This document shows, piece after piece, positions 2,276 to 17,441 of a DNA stretch of 56,861 nt. The notes under the pieces are model-generated. The model was not told the DNA's origin. It searched no databases and was given only the letters and a program-made list of their open reading frames with translations. Source of the stretch: an uncultured Oscillospiraceae bacterium (GTDB lineage Bacteria; Bacillota; Clostridia; UMGS1883); assembly GCA_964604405.1 (NCBI GenBank), contig CAZRYW010000001.1, positions 1 to 56,861 of the forward strand. The letters run 5' to 3'. Positions within the stretch are counted from its first letter, which is position 1, and every line of letters begins with the position of its first letter. The translations under genes and the position numbers were made by a program.

Positions 2276-2338
2276 TACGTTCACCTCTTTCAAAAATTTG
2301 TGTATATAAATAATTATAATCCATTACAGACAACGATG

Positions 2339-2367
2339 ATTATACCATAGGAGTGTAAAGATTGCAA
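2339..2367 (-). promoter_or_regulatory. Candidate sigma-A promoter for rpmE
   Basis: On the minus strand: TTGCAA (2367-2362), 17-nt spacer, TGgTATAAT (-10 at 2344-2339). Confidence 0.55.
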
Positions 2368-2395
2368 GAGTTTTTTGAAAAAAATTTGGGAAAAT

Positions 2396-2962
2396 ATGAG
2401 GGTGAGAAAATGGGCTGGATTTTTTAGGGGACGAAATGATACTTGGAATTGTGATATTGTTTATGCGAAGGGAGGAGATAAGATTACCGATAAGCAGAAA
2501 AAATTTTGTGACGCATATATAAGAGAGCCTAACGCAACAAAGGCATATATGGAGGCGTACTCGATACAGGACAGAAAAGCGGCGGGGAAAAAAGCAAGTG
2601 CTTTGAAGAAAAACAAAGAGGTGAGAGACTACATTAACAATGCGCTCAGAGAGGCGGGAGAAATGGCGAAGGTTGACGCAAAAAAAGTGATGGAGTTGTT
2701 GAGCGATATTGCTTTTACGTCGCCGGCAAGTTTTGTGAAAATAAAAACGGAAGACGGAAAACAGAAAATTGTTTGGAAAGACGTTTCGCATTTGCCAGAC
2801 GATGTTAAAAACGCAATAGCGACTGTCAAAAATACTCCCGGAGGAATTGTGGTGGAAACTCTTGACAGAATGAAAGCAATTGATTTGTTGATGAAGTATA
2901 TGGGGATTACTTCGTCGGGCGAGGGCGGAGTTTTCTTCAGCGGAGAAGATGAGATAGAGTGA
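2396..2962 (+). CDS. Phage terminase small subunit (start uncertain: TTG 2375, ATG 2396, or an internal non-canonical start near 2483)
   Basis: The segment ITDKQKKFCDAYIREPNATKAYMEAY is typical of terminase small-subunit N-termini, and the gene sits directly upstream of terL. Confidence 0.7.
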   Translation: MRVRKWAGFFRGRNDTWNCDIVYAKGGDKITDKQKKFCDAYIREPNATKAYMEAYSIQDRKAAGKKASALKKNKEVRDYINNALREAGEMAKVDAKKVMELLSDIAFTSPASFVKIKTEDGKQKIVWKDVSHLPDDVKNAIATVKNTPGGIVVETLDRMKAIDLLMKYMGITSSGEGGVFFSGEDEIE

Positions 2963-2980
2963 TATGCGGGTGGTGACGGT

Positions 2981-4219
2981 TTGGGGAAAAATATTTATAT
3001 GCCGGATGTTATAGGAAGCGGGTATGGCAAGTTTTGGCGTTTTAAAGGGCGTTACAGAGTCGTAAAAGGCTCAAGAGCGAGCAAGAAAAGCAAAACGACG
3101 GCGCTGTGGTTTATATATAACATGATGAAATATAAGAAAGCAAACCTTTTGGTTGTGAGAAAAACGTACAGGACGCTGAAAAATTCGTGTTTTGCGGAGC
3201 TTAAATGGGCAATGAAAAGGCTGGGCGTGGAGAAATACTGGCTTTTGAAAGAAACTCCGATGGAAATGATATATTTGCCGACGGGGCAAAAGATTTATTT
3301 TTACGGACTGGATGACCCGATGAAAATTACGAGTATAACGGTCGGAGTGGGAGTTTTGTGCTGGATGTGGATTGAGGAGGCTTATGAAATTAAGGATGAG
3401 GCAAGCTTTGATATGCTGGATGAATCCATCAGAGGCGGAACGGAAGACGGGCTTTTTAAGCAGATTACATTGACTTTTAATCCGTGGAATGAACATCATT
3501 GGCTGAAAAAACGGTTTTTTGATACGGAAAACGAAGAAGTATTGGCAATGAGCGTTAATTATACCGTAAACGAGTTTTTGGATGACGCCGACAGAAAAAT
3601 GTTTGAAATGATGAAAAAGAACAATCCTGCGAGATACCTGGTGGCGGGGCTCGGAAACTGGGGAGTAACGGACGGATGCGTTTATACAAACTACAGAGAA
3701 GAGGAGTTTTGTTTGGAAGAGGTTTTAGAAAGAAAATCGGCGAAAGCGGTTTTCGGATTGGATTTCGGATATGTAAACGATCCGTCGGCACTTTTTTGCG
3801 GAGTTGTTGACGAAGATGAAAAAAAGATTTTTGTGTTTGACGAAATGTATGAAAAGAATCTTTCAAACGAAGCTATTTTTGAAAAAATATGCCGTATGGG
3901 TTACAGAAAAGAAAAAATATATGCGGACAGCAGCGAACCGAAAAGTATTGACAGATTGCGTGTGTTGGGACTTGAGAAAATCAAAGGTGCAAAAAAAGGT
4001 CCCGACAGCGTGAGGTTTGGGATTGATTTGATAGGAGAATACGAGATAATAGTGCATCCGAGATGCGAAAACTTTTTGACGGAGATAGGAAATTATGTTT
4101 GGGAAACAAATTCGGAAGAAAAAAAGACGAACAGACCGAAAGACGAGTTTAATCATTTGATGGATGCGATGAGGTATGCGATGGAAAGTGTCGGAGAGGA
4201 AGAAAGTTTTTCTTTTTGA
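2981..4219 (+). CDS. Phage terminase large subunit, PBSX/XtmB-like family
   Basis: N-terminal ATPase region (RYRVVKGSRASKKSKT, a Walker-A-like string), a C-terminal nuclease-like region, and its position after terS. The start is TTG 2981 or ATG 2999. Confidence 0.85.
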   Translation: MGKNIYMPDVIGSGYGKFWRFKGRYRVVKGSRASKKSKTTALWFIYNMMKYKKANLLVVRKTYRTLKNSCFAELKWAMKRLGVEKYWLLKETPMEMIYLPTGQKIYFYGLDDPMKITSITVGVGVLCWMWIEEAYEIKDEASFDMLDESIRGGTEDGLFKQITLTFNPWNEHHWLKKRFFDTENEEVLAMSVNYTVNEFLDDADRKMFEMMKKNNPARYLVAGLGNWGVTDGCVYTNYREEEFCLEEVLERKSAKAVFGLDFGYVNDPSALFCGVVDEDEKKIFVFDEMYEKNLSNEAIFEKICRMGYRKEKIYADSSEPKSIDRLRVLGLEKIKGAKKGPDSVRFGIDLIGEYEIIVHPRCENFLTEIGNYVWETNSEEKKTNRPKDEFNHLMDAMRYAMESVGEEESFSF

Positions 4220-4230
4220 AAAGAGGAGTT

Positions 4231-4878
4231 ATGGGAAAATTAAAAGAATGGAGTCGGATTTTTGATGTGGCGGACAATGCCGAGTTATTCGGTGCGAGAT
4301 TGTACGAGAATAACAACAAGAATGACGGCGTTTTGTACGAGATGAAAGAAGAGGAGGGAGAGAGAAAAAGGAGCAAAGAAAAGCGGCGGAATACGCATGG
4401 CGAAACGGGAAACGGAGCATATGAGGAGTGTGTGAATTTTCGGGAAAAGATTGAAAGGAATATTGTCGAAAATATTTTGATGCAAGAGAGGTTTGAAAGA
4501 GAGGAGGCGAAAAACGATGTTTTTTACGGAATTGATGAAAGAGAAATAGGTGAAAAGCGGGCGTATGATTTGAATGAGGAACAGGAAGAGGGGTTAAGTG
4601 AAAAAATAGCGGAGTTTGCACAAAGAGGTGAAGCGGAAAAAATCGTTCGAAGAGAGGAAGACTTTTCGGGAGAGGGGATTGCAAAGGTTAAAAGAGGGCA
4701 GAGAGAAAAAATTTTGAATACGGTGACTCAAAAATATGCAGAGGCTTTGGGTAACGTGAAAATTGAGGTTACGAACAACAATACAATCGAAAAAGAAAGC
4801 GATATTGACGAGATTTCGTATCGCTTGACGCAAAAACTGTGTGAAATGATGACAAGAGGCGCAGACGGTTTGTATTGA
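4231..4878 (+). CDS. Hypothetical highly charged (E/K/R-rich) protein between terminase and portal
   Basis: ORF 4216..4878 overlaps the terL stop and the start of the portal ORF. ATG 4231 follows AAGAGGAG. I recognise no family. Confidence 0.5.
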   Translation: MGKLKEWSRIFDVADNAELFGARLYENNNKNDGVLYEMKEEEGERKRSKEKRRNTHGETGNGAYEECVNFREKIERNIVENILMQERFEREEAKNDVFYGIDEREIGEKRAYDLNEEQEEGLSEKIAEFAQRGEAEKIVRREEDFSGEGIAKVKRGQREKILNTVTQKYAEALGNVKIEVTNNNTIEKESDIDEISYRLTQKLCEMMTRGADGLY

Positions 4879-4895
4879 CGGAAAGGTGGATATGT

Positions 4896-6254
4896 GTGAG
4901 TATCTGGAGAAATGTGACGGAAGAAGTTGTTGAGAAGCTTGAAAGAGACGGCGCTTGCATGAGCGAAAAGGAATTTTTTGAAGCGGAGATAGCTTATTGG
5001 AAGAGGGACAAGCGATACAAGAGCATGATTGACGGTGAAAGGTATTTTCGGGGAGAGCACGATATATTGAAAAACGAGAGAACCGCAATCGGTCGTGACG
5101 GAAAACTGAAAAAAGTGGATAATTTGCCGAATAATCGTGTGGTGGACAATCAGTACCAGAGAATGGTGAATCAGAAAGTGAACTATTTGATGGGGCGGGA
5201 ATTTGTGATAGAGGGCGAAAACGACGATTACGTGCGTATTTTGAAGAAAAATCTCGGACGTGATTTCAGAAGATTGATGAAGTGTGTTTTGAGAGATGCC
5301 ATAAACATGGGTATCGGTTGGCTGTATTTGTATGCCGATGAACAAGGGAAGTTGAAGTTTAAAAGAATTCCGTCGTATGAAATGATTGCGTATTGGAAAG
5401 ACGAAGAACATACCGAATTGGACTGCGCGTTGAGAGTGTATACGATAGAGGGGTATAAGGGAAAAGAGAGTTGCACTCGTGAAATTGCCGAGCTTTATTC
5501 GAAAGATAAGGTCGAAGTTTTTGAGATTGAAGACGGAATACTGAAAAAGACGGGAGAAAGCGGGTATTTTACACAGGGGAGGATTCCGATTGCGGCATTT
5601 AAATACAACGAAAAAGAAATACCGTTGATAGATCGGGTGAAGCCGTTGCAGGACGCATTGAACAAGACGCTGTCGGATTTTAAAAACAACATGGAGGAAG
5701 ACGCAAGAAATACGATATTGGTGCTGCAAAATTATGACGGAACGGATTTGGGTGAGTTCAGACAAAATCTTGCCGCATACGGAGCGGTTAAAGTGAAGAG
5801 CGTGGACGGAACGCCGGGGGATATTAAAACTTTAAATACAGAGTTTGACTGCGAAAACTATTCGGTATTAACGAATTTGCTTAAAAATGCCATTGTGGAG
5901 AATGCGATGGGATATGACGCAAAAGGTGACAAGATGGGCAATAATCCCAATCAGCTTGTTATGAAAGCGATGTTCTCGGATATTGACCTTGATATGAGTG
6001 AGGCGGAAATCGAGTTTGAAAGCGGTTTTTACAGATTGTGTGAAATCGTGAACGAGTATTTGGAAATATTCGGGCAGGGATATTTTGAAGAGGAACGGGT
6101 GCGAATCATATTTAACAAAGATTGTTTGATAAACGAGAGCGAAGCTATCGACAACTGTATAAAAAGCAGTGATATGCTAAGTGAGGAAACGGTGCTGTTG
6201 ATGCATCCGTGGGTAAACGATGTGAAAAGAGAATTGAAAAATAAGGGGTGCTGA
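4896..6254 (+). CDS. Phage portal protein (SPP1 gp6-like)
   Basis: About 450 aa, in portal position, with typical N-terminal strings (YFRGEHDI, NNRVVDNQY..VNQKVNYLMG). The start could be TTG 4875, GTG 4896 (after AAAGGTGGA) or ATG 4959. Confidence 0.8.
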   Translation: MSIWRNVTEEVVEKLERDGACMSEKEFFEAEIAYWKRDKRYKSMIDGERYFRGEHDILKNERTAIGRDGKLKKVDNLPNNRVVDNQYQRMVNQKVNYLMGREFVIEGENDDYVRILKKNLGRDFRRLMKCVLRDAINMGIGWLYLYADEQGKLKFKRIPSYEMIAYWKDEEHTELDCALRVYTIEGYKGKESCTREIAELYSKDKVEVFEIEDGILKKTGESGYFTQGRIPIAAFKYNEKEIPLIDRVKPLQDALNKTLSDFKNNMEEDARNTILVLQNYDGTDLGEFRQNLAAYGAVKVKSVDGTPGDIKTLNTEFDCENYSVLTNLLKNAIVENAMGYDAKGDKMGNNPNQLVMKAMFSDIDLDMSEAEIEFESGFYRLCEIVNEYLEIFGQGYFEEERVRIIFNKDCLINESEAIDNCIKSSDMLSEETVLLMHPWVNDVKRELKNKGC

Positions 6255-6255
6255 A

Positions 6256-6678
6256 ATGGAAAGAGAAGAACTTTTGGAGTTGGGTATCGAAGAAGATGTC
6301 TGCGAGAAGATAATGGAAAAAATTTCGAAGATGGAAGAAGATTGTGAAAGAAAAATCTCGGATGTGAAAAAGGAAAGTGAAATAGAGATTGCGCTGTATG
6401 AAAGCGGAGCGAGAAATATTAAGGCGGTGAAAGCCCTTATAGACAAGGAGGGAGACGTAAAGGAGCAACTGCAAAGACTAAAAAGCGAAAGCGAGACAAG
6501 TTTTTTGTTCGGAAGCGAAAGACGAAGCTTTAAGCCGGGAACAAGCTCTAATAGATTGCCCGATACAAAGAAAAACGATTTTGAAGCGAGACTTTCGAAT
6601 GCGAGAAAACAAAAAAACACGCTCGAAGCGATAAAAATTAAGAAGCAGGCTGCCAATGAGGGGATAATGCTTCTTTGA
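6256..6678 (+). CDS. Phage scaffolding protein (GP20-like)
   Basis: 140-aa acidic, coiled-coil-like protein containing NIKAVKALIDKEG, located between portal and capsid. Confidence 0.65.
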   Translation: MEREELLELGIEEDVCEKIMEKISKMEEDCERKISDVKKESEIEIALYESGARNIKAVKALIDKEGDVKEQLQRLKSESETSFLFGSERRSFKPGTSSNRLPDTKKNDFEARLSNARKQKNTLEAIKIKKQAANEGIMLL

Positions 6679-6741
6679 CAATGTTGACAATGGGGAAACC
6701 CGTTGATTTTATAAATTAATTTTTTTAGGAGGAATTTTATT

Positions 6742-7698
6742 ATGGCAGTAGTAACAGGAGTAGGTACAAGTTGGAATTTGCCCAATTATGCGGGGGAATT
6801 GTTTACGGCGGATGCGAGTCAGACACCGCTTCTTTCGATGATAGGCTCTCTTACGGGAGGCAGACAGACGACAACAAGCGAATTCCCCACGGCGGTGCTT
6901 TTTGATTATCCGGAAGCGACACAACCCGCTATTTCGGAATCGGCATCGGTAAACGCACCGGCATCGACACTTATTGCAAGAGAACAGGAGACGAATGTGG
7001 TTCAGATTCATCAGGAGGTTGTAAATCTTACATATATGAAGATGTCGAACAGCTCCAATATGTCGGGACTTAATTCGAATGAGGCAAACAGCGTGGAGGA
7101 TGAGAAAGCGTTCCAGATTCATCATAAGCTTGTGAAAATAGCACGTGACGTTGAACACAGTTTTATAAACGGTGTGTTCAACAAGGCGAAAAACGCACAG
7201 GACGCAAACAAGACAAGAGGTTTGATAGAATTGACGAAAAGCGGCACGACAATCGACGCGGAGGGCGGAGTGCTCACGAAGAGTATGCTTGATTCGCTGT
7301 TTCGTAAAATGGCCGAAGCGGGAGCGTATTTTGATAACATGGTGATGCTTTTGCCCGCTTATCAGAAACAGATGATTACGGATATTTATGCGAGTCAGTT
7401 TAATGCGACGATGGGTGCGAGAGAAAATATCGGCGGAGTTAACGTGACGGAAATCGAGACGGATTTTTGTCGTATGGGCATTGTGTGGGACAGATTTATG
7501 CCTAAGGATACGATTTTGGTTGCAGACGTGGCACATATTGCACCTGTGTTCCAGGCAGTACCCGAAAAGGGCGTTGTTTTCGAAGAACAACTTGCGAAAA
7601 CCGGTGCAAGCGATATGATTCAGATTTATTCTCAGATCGGACTTGCGCACGGACCTGCGTTCTTGCACGGCTCGATAACGAATCTCAGCGCTGAATAA
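6742..7698 (+). CDS. Phage major capsid protein
   Basis: 318 aa. A strong RBS (AGGAGG) precedes it, it sits in capsid position after the scaffold, and its N-terminus (NLPNYAGELF...TPLLSMIG) is typical of one major capsid protein family. Confidence 0.75.
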   Translation: MAVVTGVGTSWNLPNYAGELFTADASQTPLLSMIGSLTGGRQTTTSEFPTAVLFDYPEATQPAISESASVNAPASTLIAREQETNVVQIHQEVVNLTYMKMSNSSNMSGLNSNEANSVEDEKAFQIHHKLVKIARDVEHSFINGVFNKAKNAQDANKTRGLIELTKSGTTIDAEGGVLTKSMLDSLFRKMAEAGAYFDNMVMLLPAYQKQMITDIYASQFNATMGARENIGGVNVTEIETDFCRMGIVWDRFMPKDTILVADVAHIAPVFQAVPEKGVVFEEQLAKTGASDMIQIYSQIGLAHGPAFLHGSITNLSAE

Positions 7699-7707
7699 GG
7701 TGATTGA

Positions 7708-8055
7708 ATGGATTTGGATGCATTGAGACAAAGGCTCTCGGACATGGGTTTTGAGGTTGAAGAAAACGAAGAGGAAGAGCTTGAAAGAGCATGGGAAAGA
7801 GCCGAAACGGGAATCAGAAATACCGTGAATTGCGAAAAAGTTCCGGAAGAATTGAGGTTTACGCTTTTGGATATTGCGGCGGGAGAATATCTTCTTGCCG
7901 CCAAGAGCAAAACCGGAGGCGACGGAGTGAAGAGCGTTTCGGAGGGGGACGTGTCGGTAACGTTTGAAGAAATGAACGATACCGACAGGTTGATAGACCG
8001 TCTTCTCGAAAGCGGAAGAGAGGAAATGCTCTCTTTCAGGAGGCTTGTATGGTAG
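7708..8055 (+). CDS. Head-tail connector / DNA-packaging (gp6-like) protein
   Basis: 115 aa, acidic, located immediately after the capsid gene. The call rests on position and size. Confidence 0.5.
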   Translation: MDLDALRQRLSDMGFEVEENEEEELERAWERAETGIRNTVNCEKVPEELRFTLLDIAAGEYLLAAKSKTGGDGVKSVSEGDVSVTFEEMNDTDRLIDRLLESGREEMLSFRRLVW

Positions 8056-8417
8056 AAAAAATGAAAAAGGCTATTGAACCTTTGTACACAGAGACATGCA
8101 CGGTTTACGAAAGAGAAGCCGAGCTTGAGGACAGAAGGACGGTTTTTAAAGAAACGGTGAGATATGAGAATATCCCGTGCAGGGTTTCGATGAAGGCATA
8201 TCTTTTCGGAGAAAATGCGGGAAGCGAGAAAAAGGGGTATTTGAACGTCGGCAAGAAAGCGAAGATTTTTGTGCCGCCCGAATACGAAATAAAACCCGGA
8301 AGCCGAATCGAAGTGAAATCAAACGGCAAATCGGTTGTGTATGCAAAAAGCGGGCAGATGAGCTTTTATGCATCGCACAACGAGGTGACGGTGGAAACGG
8401 AAAAGAATTTTGCATAG
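8049..8417 (+). CDS. Head-tail adaptor / head-closure protein (XkdH-position)
   Basis: 122 aa, overlaps the previous stop by 7 nt. The call is positional. Confidence 0.45.
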   Translation: MVEKMKKAIEPLYTETCTVYEREAELEDRRTVFKETVRYENIPCRVSMKAYLFGENAGSEKKGYLNVGKKAKIFVPPEYEIKPGSRIEVKSNGKSVVYAKSGQMSFYASHNEVTVETEKNFA

Positions 8418-8428
8418 GGGGATGAAAG

Positions 8429-8866
8429 ATGCCACATGAGCTGAGAAAAGCCGTTGCGGAGAAGATTTTTGAACATTTTGAGGGGAAATATCCCGTATAT
8501 ACGGAAAAAATCAATCAAAATCTTGTGAAGCCGTGTTTTTTTGCAAAGATAAGCAATATTGAAAAGATTAATCTTTTGGGCGGAAGATTTTTTTTGAGAT
8601 GTGAGGTTGAGGTGAGCTTTGTTTTGCAAGGCGAAAGCGAAAACCATTTGGCGGAAAGTGTTTCGGGAGAACTTTTCGGTGTTTTGAATTTTGTGAAAAT
8701 AGGTTCGGTGAAGCTTTTCGGAAGAAGGATGAATTGGACGAAGGAAGACGGATATGTTACGGTGCGAGTGAGTTACGATATTTTCGAAAAGGAAGAAAAA
8801 GAAGAGACGGCTATGATGGAAAAAATAGTTTTGGAGGAGAAAATCGGTGGAATATACGAAGGATGA
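8429..8866 (+). CDS. Tail completion / tail terminator-like protein (XkdI/J-position)
   Basis: 145 aa. The string YPVYTEKINQNLVKPCFF resembles tail-terminator family N-termini. The call is largely positional. Confidence 0.45.
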   Translation: MPHELRKAVAEKIFEHFEGKYPVYTEKINQNLVKPCFFAKISNIEKINLLGGRFFLRCEVEVSFVLQGESENHLAESVSGELFGVLNFVKIGSVKLFGRRMNWTKEDGYVTVRVSYDIFEKEEKEETAMMEKIVLEEKIGGIYEG

Positions 8867-8996
8867 GTTGAAAAAAAGTGAGCGATTCAAACACAAAAGA
8901 GATCTTATAGAAGCATTGTTTGATGAAGACGAAACATATGAAATTGAAGAAGTGGAAGAAATGACGGAGAGATTTTTGAAAGGAAGTGTGCGATAG
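8847..8996 (+). CDS. Small (49 aa) acidic hypothetical protein upstream of the sheath gene
   Basis: This ORF is not in the track because it is under 60 aa. GTG 8847 lies 7 nt after GGAGGAG (8833-8839). The frame stays open to TAG 8994-8996, which abuts the sheath ATG at 8997. Confidence 0.4.
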   Translation: MEYTKDELKKSERFKHKRDLIEALFDEDETYEIEEVEEMTERFLKGSVR

Positions 8997-10301
8997 ATGG
9001 CTTTGGGCGGAGGCACGTTTACAAATTACAATAAGGTTTTGCCGGGCACGTATATAAATTTTGTGTCGGCACTTTCGGCATCGGGAGAGGTGTCGGAGCG
9101 AGGCGTGTGCGCAGTTGCGATGGAGCTTGACTGGGGAGAAGAAGATGACTTCTTTTGTGTGACGGCAGAAGATTTTTATTCGAAAAGCGTGAAAATTTTC
9201 GGGTATGATTATACGCATAATAAAATGAAATGTTTGAGAGATTTGTTTTTGAATGCATCAAAGGTTTATGTGTACAGACTCGGAAACGGTGTGAAAGCAA
9301 GTAACGATTTGGCGCAGGCACTTTATGCGGGAGTGTGCGGAAACAACATAAAAATCAAAGTGAGCGAAAGCATTGATGACGACGGATTTTTTGATGTGTA
9401 TACATATTACAATAATGTGTGCAAGGACAGACAAACTGTGAAAAATGCGGCGGATTTGAAAGACAATGATTTCGTGACATGGAAAACGGAAAAAGCGCTT
9501 GCGATTTGCGGAGCGACAGCTTTGTCGGGAGGAACAAACGCCACCGTTACGGGGGAGGATTATCAGAAGTTTCTCGATAAATGCGAGAGTATCAGCTTTA
9601 ATGTGCTGGCGGCGGCAACGAAAAACGAGAGCGTTAACTCGCTTGTTGCGGCGTATACAAAGAGAATGAGAGAAGAGAGAGGAATTAAATTCCAGAGCGT
9701 ACTTTACAAAACGGAAGCGGACGACATGGGCGTAATCAACGTGGAAACGAGTGTGTCGGATAAAGCTTTCGGAGAGGAAAGTTTTGTGTGGTTCGTTGCG
9801 GGGGCCGAAGCGGGATGTGAGATTTCGAAAAGTCTTACAAACAGAGTGTATAACGGCTCTTTTACATTGGGACCGTCGCTGTCGCAGAGCGATTTGGAAA
9901 AAAGCATTGAAAAAGGCAAATTCGTCGCACACAAAGTTGACGACGAATGGAGAATTTTGTCGGATATAAATTCGCTTGTGACACTCTCAAGTGAGGTCGG
10001 TGATGTTTTTAAGGAAAATCAAACAATCAGAATCATAGATCAGATTGCATGTGATGACGCAAAGCTTTTCAAGACGAAGTATTTGGGAGTGGTTCCGAAT
10101 GACGAAGCGGGAAGAATATCGCTTTGGAACGATATTACGGAGCACAGAAAGACGTTGGTGCAGATGAGAGCCATAGAACCGTTTAAGGATGAGGACATAG
10201 AAGTTAAAAAGGGAAAAAGCAAAACAAGCGTTGTTATACAAAGTAAGATTTGTCCGATAAATTCGATGACACAGCTGTATATTTCAACGACGGTGGAATA
10301 G
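8997..10301 (+). CDS. Contractile tail sheath protein (XkdK-like)
   Basis: 434 aa with the N-terminus GGGTFTNYNKVLPGTYINF, characteristic of PBSX-type sheath proteins. The tube gene follows. Confidence 0.85.
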   Translation: MALGGGTFTNYNKVLPGTYINFVSALSASGEVSERGVCAVAMELDWGEEDDFFCVTAEDFYSKSVKIFGYDYTHNKMKCLRDLFLNASKVYVYRLGNGVKASNDLAQALYAGVCGNNIKIKVSESIDDDGFFDVYTYYNNVCKDRQTVKNAADLKDNDFVTWKTEKALAICGATALSGGTNATVTGEDYQKFLDKCESISFNVLAAATKNESVNSLVAAYTKRMREERGIKFQSVLYKTEADDMGVINVETSVSDKAFGEESFVWFVAGAEAGCEISKSLTNRVYNGSFTLGPSLSQSDLEKSIEKGKFVAHKVDDEWRILSDINSLVTLSSEVGDVFKENQTIRIIDQIACDDAKLFKTKYLGVVPNDEAGRISLWNDITEHRKTLVQMRAIEPFKDEDIEVKKGKSKTSVVIQSKICPINSMTQLYISTTVE

Positions 10302-10311
10302 GAGGAATAAA

Positions 10312-10785
10312 ATGGCGACGATTACAATGAACGGCAGCGACGCTGTCTCCGCATCGCTTGCGGAATGTTATGTGACGGTCGGATCGAACCGATACAATTT
10401 TATGCAGATGATTAATTTTAAGGCATCAATCACGAAAAACAAAAACACGATACCGATTTTGGGGCAGACGGGTCGAGGAAACAAGGCTAACGGTTGGAGC
10501 GGAGTTTTTAAAGGCAAAGCGCACTACAATCAGTCGATTTTCAGAAGTATGCTGATGGAATATAAGGAAAGCGGGGAGGATATTTATTTTGATATTCAGG
10601 TGACAAACAACGACCCCGCAAGCAGCGCCGGAAATCAGACGATGGTGTTTACGGGATGCAATATCGACGGAGGTATTTTGGCGGCATTTGACGCAGAGGG
10701 TGATTATTTGACGGAGGAAATCACGGGAACGTTTGAAGATTTTAAAATGCCGAAGAAGTTCGGATTGCTGGACGGAATGATGTGA
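10312..10785 (+). CDS. Tail tube protein (XkdM-like)
   Basis: 157 aa, immediately after the sheath, with XkdM-like size and sequence character. Confidence 0.8.
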   Translation: MATITMNGSDAVSASLAECYVTVGSNRYNFMQMINFKASITKNKNTIPILGQTGRGNKANGWSGVFKGKAHYNQSIFRSMLMEYKESGEDIYFDIQVTNNDPASSAGNQTMVFTGCNIDGGILAAFDAEGDYLTEEITGTFEDFKMPKKFGLLDGMM

Positions 10786-10794
10786 TAAAAAAAG

Positions 10795-10818
10795 ACCTGC
10801 GGGACTTTTCCCGCAGGT
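10795..10818. promoter_or_regulatory. Perfect 10-bp hairpin between the tube and chaperone genes
   Basis: acctgcggga (10795-10804), cttt loop, tcccgcaggt (10809-10818). The A-run lies upstream and there is no T-run downstream on the + strand. Confidence 0.6.
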
Positions 10819-10834
10819 TAAAAAGGAGTTTTAA

Positions 10835-11248
10835 ATGGACGGTTTGAAATATTTTTTGAAAGAGAACAAGGCGAGAAGCGAAAACGTTTTTTATAAGGCG
10901 ACGGAGTCGATGAAAGACGAGAACGGTGAAACGCTCGCCTGGGAAATAAGACATATCACGACGAGTGAAGACGAAAGAATCAGAGAAGAATGTACGAAGC
11001 GCGAAAACGGTAAAGTGAGAATAGATTACGGAAAATATTTGAAAAAGCTGGCGGTGGCAAGTGTCGTTTATCCTCCGCTTTACAATGCTCGGTTGCAGGA
11101 TTCGTACAATGTGAAAAATCCCGAAGAATTGTTGAATGAAATGATAGACAATCCCGGAGAATATCAGGAGTTTGTGAGGTTTTTGCAGAAGATTAACGGA
11201 TTTGACGTGAGCATGACGGAGAGGGTGGAAAAAGCAAAAAACTCATAA
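10835..11248 (+). CDS. Tail assembly chaperone (XkdN-like), zero-frame product
   Basis: 137 aa in the position between the tube gene and the expected tape-measure gene. It ends in the slippery sequence A AAA AAC (11236-11242). Confidence 0.75.
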   Translation: MDGLKYFLKENKARSENVFYKATESMKDENGETLAWEIRHITTSEDERIREECTKRENGKVRIDYGKYLKKLAVASVVYPPLYNARLQDSYNVKNPEELLNEMIDNPGEYQEFVRFLQKINGFDVSMTERVEKAKNS

Positions 11249-11394
11249 GTGAAGGTGACGGAGACGCAGTTTATGCGTACTGGTGCCTTCACAATTTGAA
11301 GATGCTTCCGAGTGAATTTGTGAACTTGGATAAAAACGAAAAAGCTTTTATCATTGCCGCTGTGGAAGTTTTTTTGGAAAGGACGGATGTGTGA
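10835..11394 (+). CDS. Tail assembly chaperone, predicted -1 frameshift fusion product (G-T type)
   Basis: A -1 slip at A AAA AAC (11236-11242) opens a 51-codon frame (LISEGDGDAVYAYWCLHNLKMLPSEFVNLDKNEKAFIIAAVEVFLERTDV) that ends at TGA 11392-11394. Confidence 0.6.
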
Positions 11395-12030
11395 ATGTAC
11401 ATGCTCTATATTGACAAAATACTTTTTCCCGTTGCACCGGGGAAAATTGTTGTCGAAACACAGATGGGGAATAAAACGATACGACTTGCGGACGGAAGCG
11501 AGGCGTCGCTGAGAGGCGGAAAAGGATTGAGAAAAATTTCGTTTGAAGTTTTGTTGCCACAGGTGCAATACCCTTTCGCACGATATGAAAGCGGGTTTAA
11601 GGACGCATTGTATTTTGCCGACGAACTCGAGAGAATCGCAAGCGAAAACAAACCTGTTTGGCTTGATATATACAAAACGTTTCCCGATATGAGCAAGACT
11701 TATTTGACTAACATTCAGGTATTGATTGAAAATATAAAAATCACGGAAGACGCCGAAAACGGGGCTGACGTGAAAGCGGAAATTGTTTTGAGGGAATACA
11801 GAAATGTTCAAACAAAAATCACCGAGGATAAAAAAAGCGTATCTGCCCAAACGAGGACGGACTCGTTTGAAGTGCCGCAATACTATACGGTTTGTTCGGG
11901 AGACAGTTTGTGGTATATTGCGAAAAAATATTTGGATGACTCGTCGATGTATACATATTTGGCGCAGATAAATTCGATAAAGTATCCGTATACGATTTAT
12001 GTGGGGCAAAAGTTGAAGTTGAGGGAATGA
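11395..12030 (+). CDS. LysM-domain tail protein (XkdP-like)
   Basis: C-terminal LysM motif (YYTVCSGDSLWYIAKKYL...YLAQINSIKYPYTIYVGQKLKL) and a position ahead of the XkdQ-like gene. Confidence 0.8.
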   Translation: MYMLYIDKILFPVAPGKIVVETQMGNKTIRLADGSEASLRGGKGLRKISFEVLLPQVQYPFARYESGFKDALYFADELERIASENKPVWLDIYKTFPDMSKTYLTNIQVLIENIKITEDAENGADVKAEIVLREYRNVQTKITEDKKSVSAQTRTDSFEVPQYYTVCSGDSLWYIAKKYLDDSSMYTYLAQINSIKYPYTIYVGQKLKLRE

Positions 12031-12031
12031 T

Positions 12032-13063
12032 ATGCAGACGAACATAAAAACGAGGTTGAATTATTATAAAGGGGTATACAGAGACGGATTTTCGGCAGAG
12101 TCGGACGGCGACAGACTTGAAATTTTCGTGAAAAGCAAGCTTAAGGTTTATAAAATAATTCCCGTGGAAAAGGTGAGCATAGATATGGAAGAGTTTACGG
12201 CAACCAAAGCGAGGTTCACGGTGAAAAAAGACGACGTGATAAGCTTTAATCAAGGGGATGGCGTGAGCATAAAGTACATGGGCGAAGGATTGTTTTTCGG
12301 ATATGTGTTCACAAAATGCAGAGAAAGAGAAAATTTGATAGATGTTGTTTGTTATGACCAGCTGAGGTACATGAAAAACAGACGCACGTACACGAGAGGG
12401 AAAATGAGACTCGATGAAATCGTCAACAAAATCGCAGACGACTATTTTTTGAAAAAAGGTGAAATAGAAAAGTGCGGCGTGAGTTTAGAATCGGTTGCGG
12501 CAGACAACGTCAGTTTGTTGGATGTGGTGAAGAAAGCCTGCAAGGACGTGAAAGACAAGAGCGGGGAAAAATATATTGTCTTTGACGATTGCGGTGAAAT
12601 AGTGCTGAAAAACGAAAAAAACATGATGACGGATATTGTGATAGATGAAGAGTGCGTCGGAAATTACAAATATACGGATACAATAGACGAAGGCGTTTAC
12701 AACATGGTTGAGGTGTATTCGGATAAAAAACGATACAATACGAGATATACGGCGACGGTGAGCGATAAAGAAAATATGGAAAAGTGGGGAACGTTGATTT
12801 TGTCGAAAAAAGCGACAAAGTTCGGAGAAGAATTGTCGGAAGCGAAAACTCTTTTGAAGGAATATAACAGAATACAAAGAGAGATTATCGTGAAAAACGT
12901 TCCCGGAGACACAAGAATAATACCCGGAGGAAGTTTGTATGTCGGATTCAGTATGGGAGATCTGAATTTGGACGGATATATGCGGGTGAAAAAAGCGGTG
13001 CATGTTTTTGAAAACAATACGTATTTGTGTGATGTTTATTTGGACGGGAGTGAGCTGGAATGA
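12032..13063 (+). CDS. Baseplate hub / late-control-D-like protein (XkdQ-like)
   Basis: 343 aa in a position and at a size matching XkdQ/YqbQ. Confidence 0.65.
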   Translation: MQTNIKTRLNYYKGVYRDGFSAESDGDRLEIFVKSKLKVYKIIPVEKVSIDMEEFTATKARFTVKKDDVISFNQGDGVSIKYMGEGLFFGYVFTKCRERENLIDVVCYDQLRYMKNRRTYTRGKMRLDEIVNKIADDYFLKKGEIEKCGVSLESVAADNVSLLDVVKKACKDVKDKSGEKYIVFDDCGEIVLKNEKNMMTDIVIDEECVGNYKYTDTIDEGVYNMVEVYSDKKRYNTRYTATVSDKENMEKWGTLILSKKATKFGEELSEAKTLLKEYNRIQREIIVKNVPGDTRIIPGGSLYVGFSMGDLNLDGYMRVKKAVHVFENNTYLCDVYLDGSELE

Positions 13064-13359
13064 ATATTGCGGAGGCGATAAAAAAATGTGCGCTTGACGC
13101 ATATAATGCGGCGCTTCCTTGTGAAGTTTGTGTGGGGAGCGTTGTGTGCGAAGACCCGATTGAAATAAAATGCGGGGAGTTTTGTTTGTCGGGAGATTTG
13201 CTCGACGTTTGCGATCATCTTTTGAAAAAAGAGTGTTCGTTTAAGTATGCGGGTACGGAAAAAGTGATTGTGGTGAACGAGGGGATAAAAAAAGGTGACG
13301 AAGTTGTTCTCATGAGGAAAAACGGCGGAGTGGGGTATGTTGCGATAGGGAAAATGTGA
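13060..13359 (+). CDS. Small baseplate/spike-associated protein (XkdR-like, DUF2577-type), unusually Cys-rich
   Basis: 99 aa, overlaps the previous stop (ATGA), has a C-terminal GDEVVLMRKNGG..YVAIGK pattern, and contains 8 Cys. Confidence 0.6.
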   Translation: MNIAEAIKKCALDAYNAALPCEVCVGSVVCEDPIEIKCGEFCLSGDLLDVCDHLLKKECSFKYAGTEKVIVVNEGIKKGDEVVLMRKNGGVGYVAIGKM

Positions 13360-13373
13360 TGGGAGAGTGAAAA

Positions 13374-13763
13374 ATGTTACCGATAAGCTCGATTGATGCG
13401 ACGGATGAGAGAAATAGCGAAACAAACAAGACGTTTGAAATTGATTTTGAAAACGGAAAAATCGGCGGCGTGATAGACTCGAAAGAGGCTTTGAAGCAGG
13501 CGGTGCATATTGCCGTTATTACAGAAAGATATAAATATGCGATATTTCCTCACAGCTACGGAACGGAGCTGGAAAGTGCTTTGGACGAAGGGTACGTGAA
13601 GGGGATGGGAAGAGTTAAAAACGCAATTTGCGAAAGTTTGCTTTGCGATGAAAGAATAAAAGCGGTGGAGGATTTTGAGTTTGAGCGGCACGGCGGTGCA
13701 ATGAGCGTGAAGTTTAAGGTTGTAAGTTCTTTGGGAGATATTGATGTGACGGAGGTGATTTGA
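13374..13763 (+). CDS. Baseplate wedge protein (XkdS-like, DUF2634 / gp25-W-like)
   Basis: 129 aa with the strings EALKQAVHIAVITERYKYAIFPHSYG and ERIKAVEDFEF, typical of this family. Confidence 0.7.
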   Translation: MLPISSIDATDERNSETNKTFEIDFENGKIGGVIDSKEALKQAVHIAVITERYKYAIFPHSYGTELESALDEGYVKGMGRVKNAICESLLCDERIKAVEDFEFERHGGAMSVKFKVVSSLGDIDVTEVI

Positions 13764-14803
13764 TGGCGATTACGTATGAATCGTTGCGTGAAAGCTTTTT
13801 GAAGGATATATCAGACGAGTATGACAAAAGAGAGGGTACTGTATCGTATATGATGGCGTCTGCCGTGGCGATGGCTACGATGGATATGTATGATTATATA
13901 GATAAGATGCAGAGCGAGTGTTATTTGGAGACGGCGACTGGGGCAAACCTTGAACGACTTTGTGCGATTACGGGTATCGAAAGACGGGGAGAAACGAAAG
14001 CAATCGTGAAAATCGAGGGCGGTGACGGCTTGCGATGCGGAGACAAGGTTGCTTGTGAAGATATGAGCTATACCGTGATAAGCGAGGAAGACGGTTGGTT
14101 TAAAGCGGAGGCGGATATTGCAGGAAGTGCGGCTAACGGTTATATCGGAGAGGTTGTTGCCGAAAACAGAGCGGATATTACGGATGAGATTAACATAGTG
14201 TCGATTATCGCAAAAGGAAGTGACAAAGAGGATGACGACTCTTTCAGAAAAAGATTTATCGATATGGTGAAATGCCCGGTTTGCCCCGGAAATGTGAGAT
14301 ATTACAAAGAGATTGTAGATACGATTGCGGGAATCGGAGGACGAAGAATAATTCCCGCAGAAGAGGGAGCGGGCGAAATAAGAGTTGTGATTACCGATAC
14401 TGATTATGCTGTGGCATCGGAAGATTTGGTGGATTATGTGCAGGAGGTTTTGGACCCGAAAGATAAGTCGGGACTGGGTTACGGGTTGGCACCGATAGGG
14501 CATAAGGTGAAAGTCGAAAGCGTTGAAAAGGTGAATGTTGATATTAAAGTGGAGCTGAAAGGTGTAACTACGGACGCATATTATCTGCGCTTGGCGAGAA
14601 GTCGATTGCCTGCTCTTTTTGAAAAAATCAACGAGGATTGGGATAAGACGGATTATATTGTGTTAAGAGACCGTGTAATCGAGGATTGCTTTTTGGATTT
14701 GGGTGTTGAAGACGTGAGCGTGGTATCCATAAACGAAAATGTAAACCGTTTGATTTTGAAGCCTAATCAGATATTGGGGGATGTGAGCATAAGTGGCACG
14801 TGA
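13760..14803 (+). CDS. Baseplate J-like protein (XkdT-like)
   Basis: 347 aa, overlaps the previous stop, and matches baseplate J in size and position. Confidence 0.75.
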   Translation: MMAITYESLRESFLKDISDEYDKREGTVSYMMASAVAMATMDMYDYIDKMQSECYLETATGANLERLCAITGIERRGETKAIVKIEGGDGLRCGDKVACEDMSYTVISEEDGWFKAEADIAGSAANGYIGEVVAENRADITDEINIVSIIAKGSDKEDDDSFRKRFIDMVKCPVCPGNVRYYKEIVDTIAGIGGRRIIPAEEGAGEIRVVITDTDYAVASEDLVDYVQEVLDPKDKSGLGYGLAPIGHKVKVESVEKVNVDIKVELKGVTTDAYYLRLARSRLPALFEKINEDWDKTDYIVLRDRVIEDCFLDLGVEDVSVVSINENVNRLILKPNQILGDVSISGT

Positions 14804-15227
14804 GATGGCGGTGTTTTATCCGGATTATCTGTCGGATTTTGAAGAATTGAAAGAGATATCGAATGCACAAAGAAGATGCTATCTTGCCGTACAAACCGCG
14901 GCATCGAGAGCGAAGCAGAGAATGACGTTTTATTTGAGAAGCGACGAATGGAAAGAGATACTGGAATTGAATTACGCTAATGCGGATTGGCGAGACAAAA
15001 CGTATACTATGTTGCACCGATATACGTCCGTATCGAAAGAAGAATACGAAAAGATGGTGTCAAGCAGGTTGGATGATGACTTTGTGCTGGATATTGATTA
15101 TGAAAAGAAGTCTGTTGTGCTGAAAACAACGGCGAAAAAGTACGATGTGAATAAAATCATGGGATACATCAGGGATATGTTTCCGTGCAATATGACTTTT
15201 GAAGCGGTGTATGTGAGCGAGCTGTAA
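14793..15227 (+). CDS. Baseplate/tail protein XkdU-like (DUF2313/YmfQ-type)
   Basis: About 140 aa with an N-terminal YPDYL motif, located after baseplate J. The start is GTG 14793 or ATG 14805. Confidence 0.6.
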   Translation: MAREMAVFYPDYLSDFEELKEISNAQRRCYLAVQTAASRAKQRMTFYLRSDEWKEILELNYANADWRDKTYTMLHRYTSVSKEEYEKMVSSRLDDDFVLDIDYEKKSVVLKTTAKKYDVNKIMGYIRDMFPCNMTFEAVYVSEL

Positions 15228-15233
15228 AAGATG

Positions 15234-15262
15234 TTGACAAATAATTTCTTCGGCTGTAAAAT
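15234..15262 (+). promoter_or_regulatory. Near-consensus sigma-A promoter for the lectin-metalloprotease gene
   Basis: TTGACA (15234-15239), 17-nt spacer, TAAAAT (15257-15262). Confidence 0.6.
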
Positions 15263-15294
15263 GGAGTCATATGAAAAAGGAAGGGGAAATTATA

Positions 15295-17385
15295 ATGAAA
15301 AAAGCAATATCTTTGATGCTTGCGGTTGTGATGCTGATAACTATGGCAACAATCGGAGTGAGTGCAGAGGAGATAAAAGGCTACAAGAATGCGATTTGCA
15401 CAATTGAAACCGAAGACGGGTTGTTTTTGATGCAATCGGGAAATGACAGAGGAAATGCTTTGACCGTGGGTGAAACATCCGTGAACTGGAGATTTAAAGA
15501 GTTTGCGGGCGGAAGTTATTCGATGATAAACCCGTTGGGTTTTGCCGCAGACGTTAACGGAGCATCTATGAACGAGGGCGTAAGTATCATACAATGGACG
15601 GCTACCGGTGCAAACAACCAGAGATGGATGATTGAAGAAGCGGAAGACGGCTATTGCTATATTAAGTCGGTTTTTTCGAATCTTTATTTGACATACACGG
15701 AATCTGTTGTGACACAGGAAGCGAAGGACGAAGAAAAGGAGCAACTTTGGAAAATCGAAATTGTCGGAGAATACGAACCGACGGTTGAAAAAATGCTCGA
15801 AAGCGAAGCTGCCAAGAGTCTTTCCGAATACAAGTATGAAAGACTTTGCGACTTTATCCTCTCCGGCGGAGAATTCAATCTTTTGACATATGACAAAATC
15901 GAAAAAATGATTGAAGAAAGAGATTATTTCAATTTGCCGTATGAAGAACAGGTAAGTTTTGTTGAGGAATGTTTTAAAGTTGAACCGACGAGTTTGATGT
16001 ACGGTTCGATGGCAACAAAGCTGAAAAAAGATATAAAGGTTGAATATGTCGGTATTGAAGAGGGTGCATGGCAGTCGTGGCACGGAATTCCCGAAGAAGA
16101 ACCGAGACTTTACAATATAACGATTACGGACACGGAATCCGGAGATGAGCATGTTGTGCAGTATATTTCACCGTATGATAATGATGAAGAATATGCGGCG
16201 ACAGTCGGCGAGGCGATTGCATGTTTTGAAATGCCGATAGTAAAGGTTTTGTGGAGATTTGTATACACAAGCATGAACACGTCCAGCTGGAACGGCGGTG
16301 ACGGAACTATTTGGAATAACACCGCTTACCGCGGAGACGTGAACAACATGGTGCAGATGTTTGCTCATGAGCTCGGTCATGTTATGGATAACGGCAGACA
16401 GGATACGAATGTTTGGTATCGTGCGATCGCACAGGACATGGTGCCCGTAACAGGTTACGGGAATACAAACAGATGGGAAGATTTGGCTGAATTTTCACGC
16501 CTTTATCTTTTGGCCAAGGGCGATGATGCGAGAATAGAGGCAATCGAAAAGACATATCCCGCAAGAACAAAGGCATACAAGGCTCTTTTGTATGTGCTTG
16601 ACAATGAATTTTACGCTTGTTATGAAGAAGAATACAAATCGTTGCAGTCAACAATGGGCGATTGGGACAAGAGTGCGCAGGTGATGATTTCGCTTGACGG
16701 ACAATATCTCACGGACGACAACGGAAGCCTTGTTTTTGTTGACAAAAAAGATGTAATCAAAAATTGGCAGACGTGGGAAGTATATACACAGAATGCTGGT
16801 GAAAGCGTTTTCAGAAACAAGGCAACGGGAAAATACATTACGCTTGAAGACGGAAAAGCAACTTTCGGAGAAAAGAGAGAATGGGGAATCCAATCATCGG
16901 AAGACGGATATTCGATAATAGATTCGGCAACGGGATTTGTGCTTGACGAAAATTTGTGCGTTGCATTGGAAAACGGATTGAAGATTGATATAGAGGAAGT
17001 CGGAAGAATTCCGTATACGGGAGATAAGACGATTGAACTTTCGGTAAACGGAGAAAAGATAGCTTTTACAGAGGGCGAAGGTCTTACGATGGGCAATGAA
17101 GATAACGCGTGGACTTTTGTTGCGGTGGATAAAGGATATTATCTTATTATGAACAAAGAAACTGGAAAAGTGTTTGATATTTCCGGCAACAGCACAGAAA
17201 ACGGTGCGAGTGCGATTTTGTACTCGATAACCGGAGGCGAAAATCAGCATTTTAAAATCGTTAACAATAACGACGGAACGTATAAATTGCAGCTTCGTCA
17301 CAGCGGATTGTATCTGACAAGAACAAATGACGGATTCTGTCAGAGCGACGGTTCGATGGGATATACAAACTGGATAATCAAATAA
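15295..17385 (+). CDS. Secreted multidomain protein: signal peptide, ricin-B-type lectin repeat, HEXXH zinc metalloprotease core (gluzincin, possibly ATLF/M34-like), and two further ricin-B-like repeats
   Basis: Signal peptide MKKAISLMLAVVMLITMATIGVSA. HELGH lies at 16366-16380, with EDLAEF about 40 aa downstream. QxW-type repeats are present (QRW, QLW, QTW, QHF). The start at ATG 15295 follows GGAAGGGG; the ORF track starts at 15271. Confidence 0.7.
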   Translation: MKKAISLMLAVVMLITMATIGVSAEEIKGYKNAICTIETEDGLFLMQSGNDRGNALTVGETSVNWRFKEFAGGSYSMINPLGFAADVNGASMNEGVSIIQWTATGANNQRWMIEEAEDGYCYIKSVFSNLYLTYTESVVTQEAKDEEKEQLWKIEIVGEYEPTVEKMLESEAAKSLSEYKYERLCDFILSGGEFNLLTYDKIEKMIEERDYFNLPYEEQVSFVEECFKVEPTSLMYGSMATKLKKDIKVEYVGIEEGAWQSWHGIPEEEPRLYNITITDTESGDEHVVQYISPYDNDEEYAATVGEAIACFEMPIVKVLWRFVYTSMNTSSWNGGDGTIWNNTAYRGDVNNMVQMFAHELGHVMDNGRQDTNVWYRAIAQDMVPVTGYGNTNRWEDLAEFSRLYLLAKGDDARIEAIEKTYPARTKAYKALLYVLDNEFYACYEEEYKSLQSTMGDWDKSAQVMISLDGQYLTDDNGSLVFVDKKDVIKNWQTWEVYTQNAGESVFRNKATGKYITLEDGKATFGEKREWGIQSSEDGYSIIDSATGFVLDENLCVALENGLKIDIEEVGRIPYTGDKTIELSVNGEKIAFTEGEGLTMGNEDNAWTFVAVDKGYYLIMNKETGKVFDISGNSTENGASAILYSITGGENQHFKIVNNNDGTYKLQLRHSGLYLTRTNDGFCQSDGSMGYTNWIIK

Positions 17386-17404
17386 AATCGAATAAAGTTG
17401 ACGA

Positions 17405-17441
17405 GGAGTCGGGAAAAATCAATTTCCCGATTCCTTTTTTT
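17405..17441 (+). terminator. Rho-independent terminator
   Basis: 12-bp stem ggagtcgggaaa / tttcccgattcc with a 6-nt loop, followed by T7 (17435-17441). Confidence 0.85.

Follow-up and report, generated by a model that had tools for sequence, protein, structure and literature searches.

A conserved phage-derived locus of gut Clostridia that probably encodes a contractile-tailed DNA-packaging particle

A cluster of phage structural genes was analysed in contig CAZRYW010000001.1 of an uncultured Oscillospiraceae bacterium (assembly GCA_964604405.1), all 56,861 nucleotides of which are referred to here as the window. The cluster is vertically inherited and under purifying selection at a fixed locus between rpmE and glnN, a genomic pattern by which gene transfer agents (GTAs) are recognised. 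As read from its sequence, it is probably a domesticated, host-controlled locus for a contractile-tailed DNA-packaging particle of the kind represented by GTAs and by PBSX of Bacillus subtilis, with accessory functions elsewhere in the genome. The host belongs to an uncultured, spore-forming Clostridia lineage of herbivore guts that is labelled Oscillospiraceae. An earlier note on this DNA had preferred a domesticated element of the GTA or PBSX type to a recently truncated prophage, and conservation, selection and co-divergence favour the same choice.

Gene content, conservation and selection

The cluster covers 12.9 kb and is operon-like. At positions 2375-15227, searches of Pfam, PHROGs and NCBIfam placed 19 intact, co-directional phage structural open reading frames (ORFs), running from the small terminase gene terS to XkdU, as listed below with the source of each assignment.

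2483-2962, + strand: terS, small terminase (Terminase_2), mechanical ORF from TTG 2375; Pfam, PHROGs
2981-4219, + strand: terL, large terminase of the PBSX family; Pfam Terminase_3 and Terminase_3C, TIGR01547 at 185 bits
4216-4878, + strand: mini tape measure, acidic, 215-220 aa, conserved start MGKLKEW at 4231; phrog_1068, hidden Markov model (HMM), hhalign
4875-6254, + strand: portal, SPP1 gp6-like (SPP1_portal); Pfam
6256-6678, + strand: scaffold; Pfam, PHROGs
6742-7698, + strand: major capsid protein, MCP (SU10_MCP); Pfam
7708-8055, + strand: head-tail adaptor, homologue of phiC2 p09; phrog_132
8049-8417, + strand: head-closure protein, homologue of phiC2 p10; phrog_615
8429-8866, + strand: tail terminator/tail completion protein, homologue of phiC2 p12; PF20765
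8847-8996, + strand: conserved 49-aa ORF directly 5' of the sheath gene; sequence comparison
8997-10301, + strand: contractile tail sheath; four sheath Pfam domains
10312-10785, + strand: tail tube, XkdM/DUF2001; Pfam
10835-11248, extension to 11394, + strand: XkdN-type tail assembly chaperone; PF08890
11395-12030, + strand: LysM baseplate protein XkdP; Pfam
12032-13063, + strand: hub protein YqbQ/XkdQ; Pfam
13060-13359, + strand: DUF2577/XkdR; Pfam
13374-13763, + strand: sheath initiator XkdS; Pfam
13760-14803, + strand: baseplate J/XkdT; Pfam
14793-15227, + strand: XkdU/Mu-Gp48-like, no Pfam match; profile-profile match

Judged by these domains, the cluster encodes a capsid with a complete DNA-packaging machine (TerS, TerL and portal) and a contractile tail with its baseplate, the neck being reduced. 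The assignments made in the earlier note are thereby confirmed; XkdU was placed by comparison of its orthologue profile with the Mu-Gp48/XkdU proteins of phage relatives (98.6% probability, E 7e-16). The gene junctions quoted there are correct and no ORF is interrupted. The PBSX late-operon order that it described holds for the genes it named, and fails at ORF 4216-4878, a tape-measure remnant without PBSX counterpart. The stretch 8866-8997, formerly passed over as a gap, holds the 49-aa ORF; a gene is called at the equivalent place in the relative L013 (relatives and other collected loci are given as L numbers), and the product resembles a 67-aa ORF of the phage relative L026. Three proteins are shortened with respect to phages, namely the portal (459 aa vs 507 aa in L026), the scaffold (140 aa vs 208 aa in L026) and XkdU (144 aa vs 176-265 aa).

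The other 41 kb of the 56.9-kb contig consist of housekeeping genes only, among them relQ, rimM, trmD, addB, infC, dprA, topA, dnaB, ftsH, priA, def/fmt and prkC. No integrase, repressor or other control, replication or lysis gene was found anywhere in the contig, as had been noted earlier for both sides of the cluster. Genes for self-replication, integration, excision or preferential self-packaging are absent from the cluster and from this contig, as expected of a GTA. An integrase with att repeats just outside the borders was not found; the window contains no att-like direct repeats, its sole direct repeats being weak and at chance level, and no tRNA or tandem repeat. Codon usage of the cluster is close to that of the host (correlation of relative synonymous codon usage r = 0.94, vs 0.96 for one half of the host genes against the other). 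The window has a strongly positive GC skew and nearly all of its genes lie on the + strand.

The occurrence of the cluster was followed with the sheath protein, which gave 49 clusters at 60-91% identity, the next matches lying at <=55%. A scan of one genome per species of the Genome Taxonomy Database (GTDB) detected the cluster in 11 species-level metagenome-assembled genomes (MAGs), and further assemblies carry it too, so that at least a dozen species are represented; flanking DNA is sufficient to show the locus in 10 of the 11. The carriers are labelled uncultured Oscillospiraceae or Clostridia, and several are from goat, buffalo or roe-deer gut. In the viral database IMG/VR only one short contig falls within the clade. 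Mapping by tblastn revealed the same gene order and borders wherever contigs reach, with rpmE on the left and a lectin gene, glnN and relQ on the right. Thus, the comparison proposed earlier, whether relatives keep the cluster at the same place, has a positive answer. In the closest relative (Logan assemblies, 91% sheath identity) the whole neighbourhood is the same, SpoU-SNF-spo0A-rpmE, cluster, lectin-glnN-relQ. Upstream of rpmE lie spo0A in the window and L013, spoIIAB-sigF-DUF6062 in L005 and L009, and other genes in L010. As these upstream neighbours vary, the conserved block runs from rpmE to relQ. The arrangement of spoIIAB and sigF (both named from sequence alone) and DUF6062 before rpmE was seen at 1055-2967 of L005 and 212-2382 of L009; the sporulation regulators next to the particle locus thus vary between species, and the hosts form spores.

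Selection was assessed from the ratio of nonsynonymous to synonymous substitution rates (dN/dS). Between the window and L013 it was 0.005 for the tube, 0.011 for MCP, 0.04 for terS, 0.05 for the portal, 0.06 for the sheath and 0.07 for terL; the other structural genes, the mini tape measure excepted, gave 0.08-0.17. The flanking genes gave 0.018 (glnN), 0.038 (spo0A) and 0.068 (SNF). The dN/dS below 1 that had been put forward as a check on domestication therefore holds for every gene, at values comparable to those of the flanking core genes. In the same pair dS was 0.5-1.15 in the cluster and 0.5-0.87 in flanking protein-coding genes (0.12 in the short rpmE). The picture was repeated in five other independent pairs, with dS often saturated. 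MCP and tube are the best-conserved cluster genes, MCP being 81-99% identical in amino acid sequence across the clade.

In 13 relatives, 193 of 197 gene copies were full-length single matches and three more were full-length ORFs with divergent ends, so that 196 are intact; the frameshifts, stops and neutral evolution that would mark a decaying element were not seen. The sole exception is the tube gene of L008 (9451-9917), which is split by one frameshift that could be a MAG assembly error. Cluster protein distances follow GlnN distances (Pearson 0.70-0.89) and recover the same subgroups, and glnN differs by up to 24% among lineages that share the cluster architecture. Intact copies, low dN/dS, similar dS and co-divergence with glnN together argue for vertical inheritance and domestication and against recent truncation. 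A search for an empty site among metagenome contigs with the window GlnN returned only relatives at <=56% identity, without cluster genes or rpmE nearby; since no unoccupied rpmE-glnN interval was found in sister lineages, the insertion cannot be dated.

One packaging protein is reduced in part of the clade. TerS of L005 and L010 is 100 aa long and consists of the C-terminal part only (dN/dS 0.08); the DNA-binding N-terminal half, which bears the helix-turn-helix (HTH) in the Terminase_2 family, is gone. This is the sole, indirect hint at packaging of random host DNA.

The tape measure and its relocated remnant

The nearest true phages are the Clostridioides difficile myophages phiC2, phiMMP01 and CDMH1 and uncultured IMG/VR relatives such as L026. 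The sheath and tube of the phiC2 group and the IMG/VR phages are 48-53% and 54-58% identical to those of the window, the phiC2-group sheath lying at 48%, and L026 shares 63% identity in terL and 67% in MCP. Tail gene order and a slippery site in the chaperone gene are also common to both. The phages differ in their genomes of 35-56 kb, which encode a full tape measure protein (TMP) located between chaperone and XkdP, fibres, a long XkdU, a minor head protein of the MuF(-toxin) type and a neck protein of the HK97-gp10 type, and which have modules for lysis and lysogeny. Missing from the cluster are the fibres, the minor head protein of MuF(-ADP-ribosyltransferase) type, a head protein of 97 aa, the HK97-gp10-like neck gene that precedes the tail terminator in the phages, and the part for lysis, lysogeny and replication; the absence of MuF, HK97-gp10 and a long XkdU is common to all clade members. 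The minor head protein of L026 (3067-5580) is a fusion of a MuF domain with an ADP-ribosyltransferase toxin domain; its gene is deleted in the domesticated clade.

The full TMP (XkdO) is absent from its normal site in the window, where the distance from the chaperone stop to the XkdP ATG is 146 nt. Apart from L007 (423 nt), all 14 clade loci and the window have 146-157 nt here, vs 2.1-7.8 kb in 47 loci of phage relatives, in which the interval holds a TMP of 640-1220 aa. The content of the 146-nt junction is a -1 frame extension of the chaperone gene. A slippery heptamer, A_AAA_AAC, lies at 11236-11242, and the extended frame stops at TGA 11392-11394, abutting the XkdP ATG. The slippery site and the 47-aa extension are kept in all relatives and in the ordinary phage L011, and -1 frameshifting of the chaperone is predicted from them. 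The longer junction of L007 is due to a GC-rich insert. At about 9100-9500 of that locus, XkdP is separated from the chaperone extension by GC-rich inserts, GCGGG...CCCGCCCCTACGACC in two copies, resembling repetitive extragenic palindromes or miniature inverted-repeat transposable elements (REP/MITE-like), and a further GC-rich stretch lies 3' of terL at about 1190-1400; L007, the sole relative with a longer junction, is also without the lectin gene.

The earlier note had treated the tape measure as merely unlinked. The normal site is in fact cleanly empty in all members, and a short derivative, the mini tape measure (mini-TMP), is encoded between terL and portal. The ORF is present there in all clade members, with a terL-portal spacing of 613-1301 nt, vs 30-500 nt in nearly all phage relatives (920 nt in one). 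In the wider family the protein is 153-324 aa long. In the family alignment both ends are conserved, the N-terminus as the motif MGKxxEWxxIF...FFEA and the C-terminus as a block of about 45 aa with the consensus VKIEVxNNNxI..DID..LTxRLCExMxRGADGLY, and the stretch between them is hypervariable. The C-terminal block matches positions 665-705 of the 706 in phrog_1068 (E 4.7e-6) and aligns with residues 722-761 of the 762-aa phiC2 TMP. When an HMM of the block was compared with the 1573 ORFs of all collected loci, only mini-TMPs and 40 full TMPs were matched, in the latter always <=17 residues from the C-terminus. Profile-profile comparison (hhalign) of mini-TMP and TMP gave 96.9% probability and E 1.3e-10. 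By these matches ORF 4216-4878 is a C-terminal remnant of a tape measure, with a C-terminal domain homologous to the extreme C-terminus of TMPs.

The N-terminus of the mini-TMP does not resemble that of full TMPs, which begins with the conserved MATIxTAI.... The protein is thus not a TMP that kept both ends and simply lost an internal part. The AlphaFold2 model of the mini-TMP is mostly helical at low confidence (pLDDT 59), and the gene evolves fast (dN/dS 0.30-0.50). TMP C-termini act at the baseplate hub. As the TMP chaperone is also retained, the mini-TMP might serve as a plug for tube initiation or as a short ruler; retention of the chaperone with its slippery site argues that a TMP-like client still exists.

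A second lineage without TMP was found among IMG/VR contigs (L069, L097, L174 and L178), with sheaths 47-51% identical to that of the window. Its chaperone-XkdP junction is also empty (173 nt in L069, 170 nt in L178), and a protein of 360-385 aa with a similar C-terminus is encoded between terL and portal, the terL-miniTMP-portal block being placed after the tail genes. In this lineage XkdU is still a full Mu-Gp48-like protein, XkdQ bears an NlpC/P60 domain, and a fibre-like gene of 278 aa is kept; neither terS nor capsid genes were seen after the portal on its contigs. Only L174 reaches far past the portal, into the host genes GGDEF, fabH-like and fabK-like, the latter two named from sequence alone. 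A common origin of both TMP-less lineages was considered and finds no support in a neighbour-joining tree of the sheath, where the L069 type does not branch as sister of the window clade. Its relation to the window clade may reflect mosaicism or independent origin.

Start of the operon and neighbouring genes

The control region and the genes bordering the cluster contain the following features.

2075-2293, - strand: rpmE, divergent left neighbour of the cluster
2339-2367, - strand: rpmE promoter, TTGCAA-17-TATAAT with TG extension, left border of the conserved block
2428-2460, + strand: clade-specific promoter-like element, from conservation across relatives
15271-17385, + strand: gene for a secreted 704-aa lectin/HExxH protein, promoter 15234-15262, terminator 17403-17436

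An invariant box, GGGACGAAATG, at 2428-2438 spans the -35 region of the putative cluster promoter, where no TTGACA-like hexamer is present. It is followed by an extended -10 (TG at 2452-2453, TATTGT at 2455-2460) in the arrangement GGGACGAAATG-N13-TGnTATAnT. Further 3' is a conserved GGAGG-N7-ATT, with the Shine-Dalgarno sequence GGAGGAG at 2471-2477 in the window. The box is present once, in the same place, in the window and in all eight distinct relatives with upstream DNA; it is also in L014, a duplicate of L013 that was not counted. It is absent upstream of terS in 80 phage-relative loci. These features suggest a promoter that evolved in the host, depends on an activator or an alternative sigma factor, and is coupled to a weak AUU start of terS.

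The start of terS is most likely ATT 2483, 7 nt after GGAGG, and not TTG 2375. The first ORF, formerly thought to begin close to the -35 of the rpmE promoter, would then start 3' of the element at 2428-2460. An ATT start is also found in L001, L003, L005, L008 and L013 and, by eye, in L009 (as ATC), L010 and L012; in L005 no in-frame ATG, GTG or TTG is possible as a start. No phage regulator was found near the cluster in the window. The Rfam search of the window gave no RNA family, and the leader upstream of the cluster is thus not a known riboswitch.

Control by Spo0A was also considered. In the 0A box TGTCGAA the contacted bases are G2, C4 and G5 (PMC3485338), and the invariant box includes GGACGAA, which keeps all three. 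The window has 97 occurrences of TGNCGAA, however, and spo0A itself is not preceded by a box; the proposal has no statistical support and is no more than a guess.

The rpmE promoter is kept in all relatives whose contigs include the 5' end. Between its -35 and the cluster promoter lies a near-palindrome, TTTTTT-G-AAAAAAA, at 2372-2386. It reads T7-G-A7 in most relatives and is kept in nearly all, being degenerate in L012. It may be an UP element of rpmE or a CodY-box-like site (AATTTTCWGAAAATT). Within the cluster, a strong GC-rich hairpin, ACCTGCGGG-AAAA-GTCCCGCAGGT, is located at 10795-10818 between the tube and chaperone genes, with no T-run after it on the + strand; it may be an attenuator or an RNA-stability element.

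Core genes had been described as flanking the cluster on both sides. This is correct for rpmE on the left; the direct right neighbour is the lectin/HExxH gene, after which glnN follows. The signal peptide of the lectin protein ends in VSA|EE; the protein further contains three lectin domains of the ricin type and, centrally, an HExxH domain (FAHELGHVMD...EDLAEF), and its gene has a strong sigma-A-type promoter and a terminator of its own. The gene adjoins the cluster in all relatives but L007 (56-87% amino acid identity) and occupies the position of the PBSX fibre genes. The HExxH part weakly resembles a region of L037 and L075 that is located where L026 has its MuF-type minor head gene. A role as tail fibre was rejected, and the signal peptide, the separate promoter and the want of phage homology are the reasons for not assigning the gene to the cluster.

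Interpretation and comparison with known systems

The events at the locus can be pictured as follows. The host would turn the operon on through the clade-specific promoter, with its extended -10 and the GGGACGAAATG box in place of a -35, by means of an unlinked activator or sigma factor. TerS would be translated from the weak AUU start, and TerS and TerL would fill capsids by headful packaging. Mainly host DNA would be packaged, since the element has no means of amplifying itself and the DNA-binding half of TerS is dispensable. The XkdN chaperone, together with its frameshift form, would help to assemble tails on the XkdP-U baseplate. A short acidic protein with only the hub-binding C-terminal domain would take the place of the tape measure, and the tail is accordingly predicted to be much shorter, or to be measured in another way. 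Unlinked genes would have to provide for release and for any receptor-binding fibre, as in the RcGTA of Alphaproteobacteria and the FpGTA of Faecalibacterium. Such particles may deliver DNA, as GTAs do, or may merely perforate cells in the manner of PBSX. Several points weigh against a host-controlled packaging particle. Lysis, fibre and regulator genes were not found within this single contig of the genome, and the promoter has been assigned by conservation only. The middle of the mini-TMP is hypervariable (153-324 aa in total length) and fast-evolving, which is odd for a ruler. With the full TMP, the gp10-like neck protein and the fibres lost, complete tails could fail to form or to join heads.

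A functionless prophage remnant, recently truncated or slowly decaying, would explain the incomplete set of modules, the frameshifted tube gene of MAG L008 and the fast evolution of the mini-TMP. It is highly improbable, as the same architecture is kept across lineages with glnN differing by up to 24%, all gene copies but that one are intact, and dN/dS is 0.005-0.17 except in the mini-TMP (0.30) with dS near saturation. Neutral decay over such a distance would have destroyed the ORFs, and co-divergence with glnN and identical flanks argue against recent horizontal copying. The missing activator, lysis and fibre genes could instead point to a fixed, satellite-like module that is induced, completed (with fibres, lysis and a full TMP) and released only when a related myophage infects or is induced; phiC2-like myophages with tail proteins about 50% identical are abundant in similar habitats. 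This dependence on a helper is very unlikely, since the integrase, replication or interference genes typical of satellites are absent, inheritance at one locus is strictly vertical, and a full baseplate, sheath and tube are encoded by the cluster itself. Recognition by a phage late activator is also unlikely, as the promoter box was not found upstream of terS in the 80 phage-relative loci.

Of the rival readings, a PBSX-style killer is the least improbable. The contractile tail would then be selected as a bacteriocin against related strains, and DNA-filled heads would be a by-product without delivery. The PBSX-like gene set and order and the purifying selection on sheath, tube and baseplate genes agree with this, and PBSX, the closest studied system, packages random 13 kb pieces of host DNA and reportedly does not inject them, acting like a tailocin (PMC12946183). 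The head genes, however, are constrained at least as strongly as the tail genes (MCP 0.011, portal 0.05, terL 0.07). Tailocins selected for killing are said to have lost their head genes. Moreover, the locus has no fibre or receptor-binding gene, XkdU, the fibre anchor in related baseplates, is truncated, and the tape-measure remnant predicts a very short tail. A killer is an unlikely though not a negligible explanation, and a domesticated DNA-packaging particle under host control is preferred. A bolder form of this preferred reading is put forward tentatively, as a possibility we would not yet bet on. An ancient, family-level domestication would have given rise to the first contractile-tailed GTA-type particle of gut Clostridia, with the tape measure reduced to a relocated protein of 150-320 aa that has only the hub-binding C-terminal domain, an ultrashort or ruler-free tail, and a host regulator acting through a newly evolved promoter; the L069 type would show the same solution persisting elsewhere.

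GTA-type particles have only lately been recognised in Gram-positive gut anaerobes (FpGTA, 2026). The present locus is a concrete and evolutionarily validated candidate of another morphotype, that with a contractile tail, and its host lineage is common in the guts of ruminants. It is also a natural experiment on tail-length determination, since the canonical TMP is deleted and the chaperone, frameshift, sheath, tube and baseplate remain strongly constrained, alongside a very small protein derived from the TMP. As markers for finding domesticated particles in MAGs that prophage predictors label 'incomplete prophage', the locus offers the empty XkdN-XkdP junction, the terL-portal mini-TMP and the promoter box. 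Literature searches yielded no account of this cluster, nor of a mini tape measure that has been relocated.

The cluster is unlike an intact or recently truncated prophage, having no integrase, att, repressor, replication or lysis functions and neither strain-specific presence nor neutral decay. It differs from a satellite of the cf-PICI type (capsid-forming phage-inducible chromosomal island) in its full set of tail and baseplate genes and in the absence of integrase and replication genes. R-type tailocins (pyocin R, diffocin) are similar as domesticated, chromosomally fixed contractile tails with baseplates; they retain fibres, lysis genes and the full tape measure and are not known to have terminase, portal or capsid genes. 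The window cluster, by contrast, has terS, terL, portal, scaffold and MCP, all under strong constraint, and its best-conserved genes are those for head and packaging.

RcGTA-type elements and FpGTA are alike in having a structural core of about 10-15 kb without replication or integration genes, in vertical inheritance under purifying selection, and in accessory fibre and lysis functions that are expected elsewhere in the genome. FpGTA (Borodovich et al. 2026, PMC12946183) also comes from an Oscillospirales gut anaerobe. TerS of both GTAs is without a DNA-binding domain (PMC12946183), which is paralleled by TerS of L005 and L010 without the HTH half. RcGTA is siphovirus-like and FpGTA podovirus-like, whereas the window cluster encodes a contractile tail; no sequence relationship to either was found, and none is expected. 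GTA-like packaging has been seen in gut Oscillospiraceae and Christensenellaceae, in which the gene clusters were not identified, and GTA core-cluster candidates of 12.7-14 kb have been described in other gut Clostridia, one of them (Coprocola) with a separate lysis locus.

PBSX, with the related skin-element module of B. subtilis, shares with the cluster the terminase family TIGR01547, the order sheath XkdK, tube XkdM, chaperone XkdN and XkdP-Q-R-S-T-U, and the nature of a chromosomal element incapable of its own propagation. The PBSX locus keeps the xre repressor, the late sigma-like factor xpf, a full XkdO in its normal place, the fibre genes XkdV-X and the xhlAB-xlyA lysis cassette. The window cluster differs in that no full XkdO lies between XkdN and XkdP (146 nt only), no xre/xpf-type control, XkdV fibre or holin-endolysin cassette is linked to it in the window, a mini-TMP is encoded between terL and portal, and it has an SU10-type capsid. 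The cluster would work like PBSX and the GTAs, yet it is a strict member of neither family.

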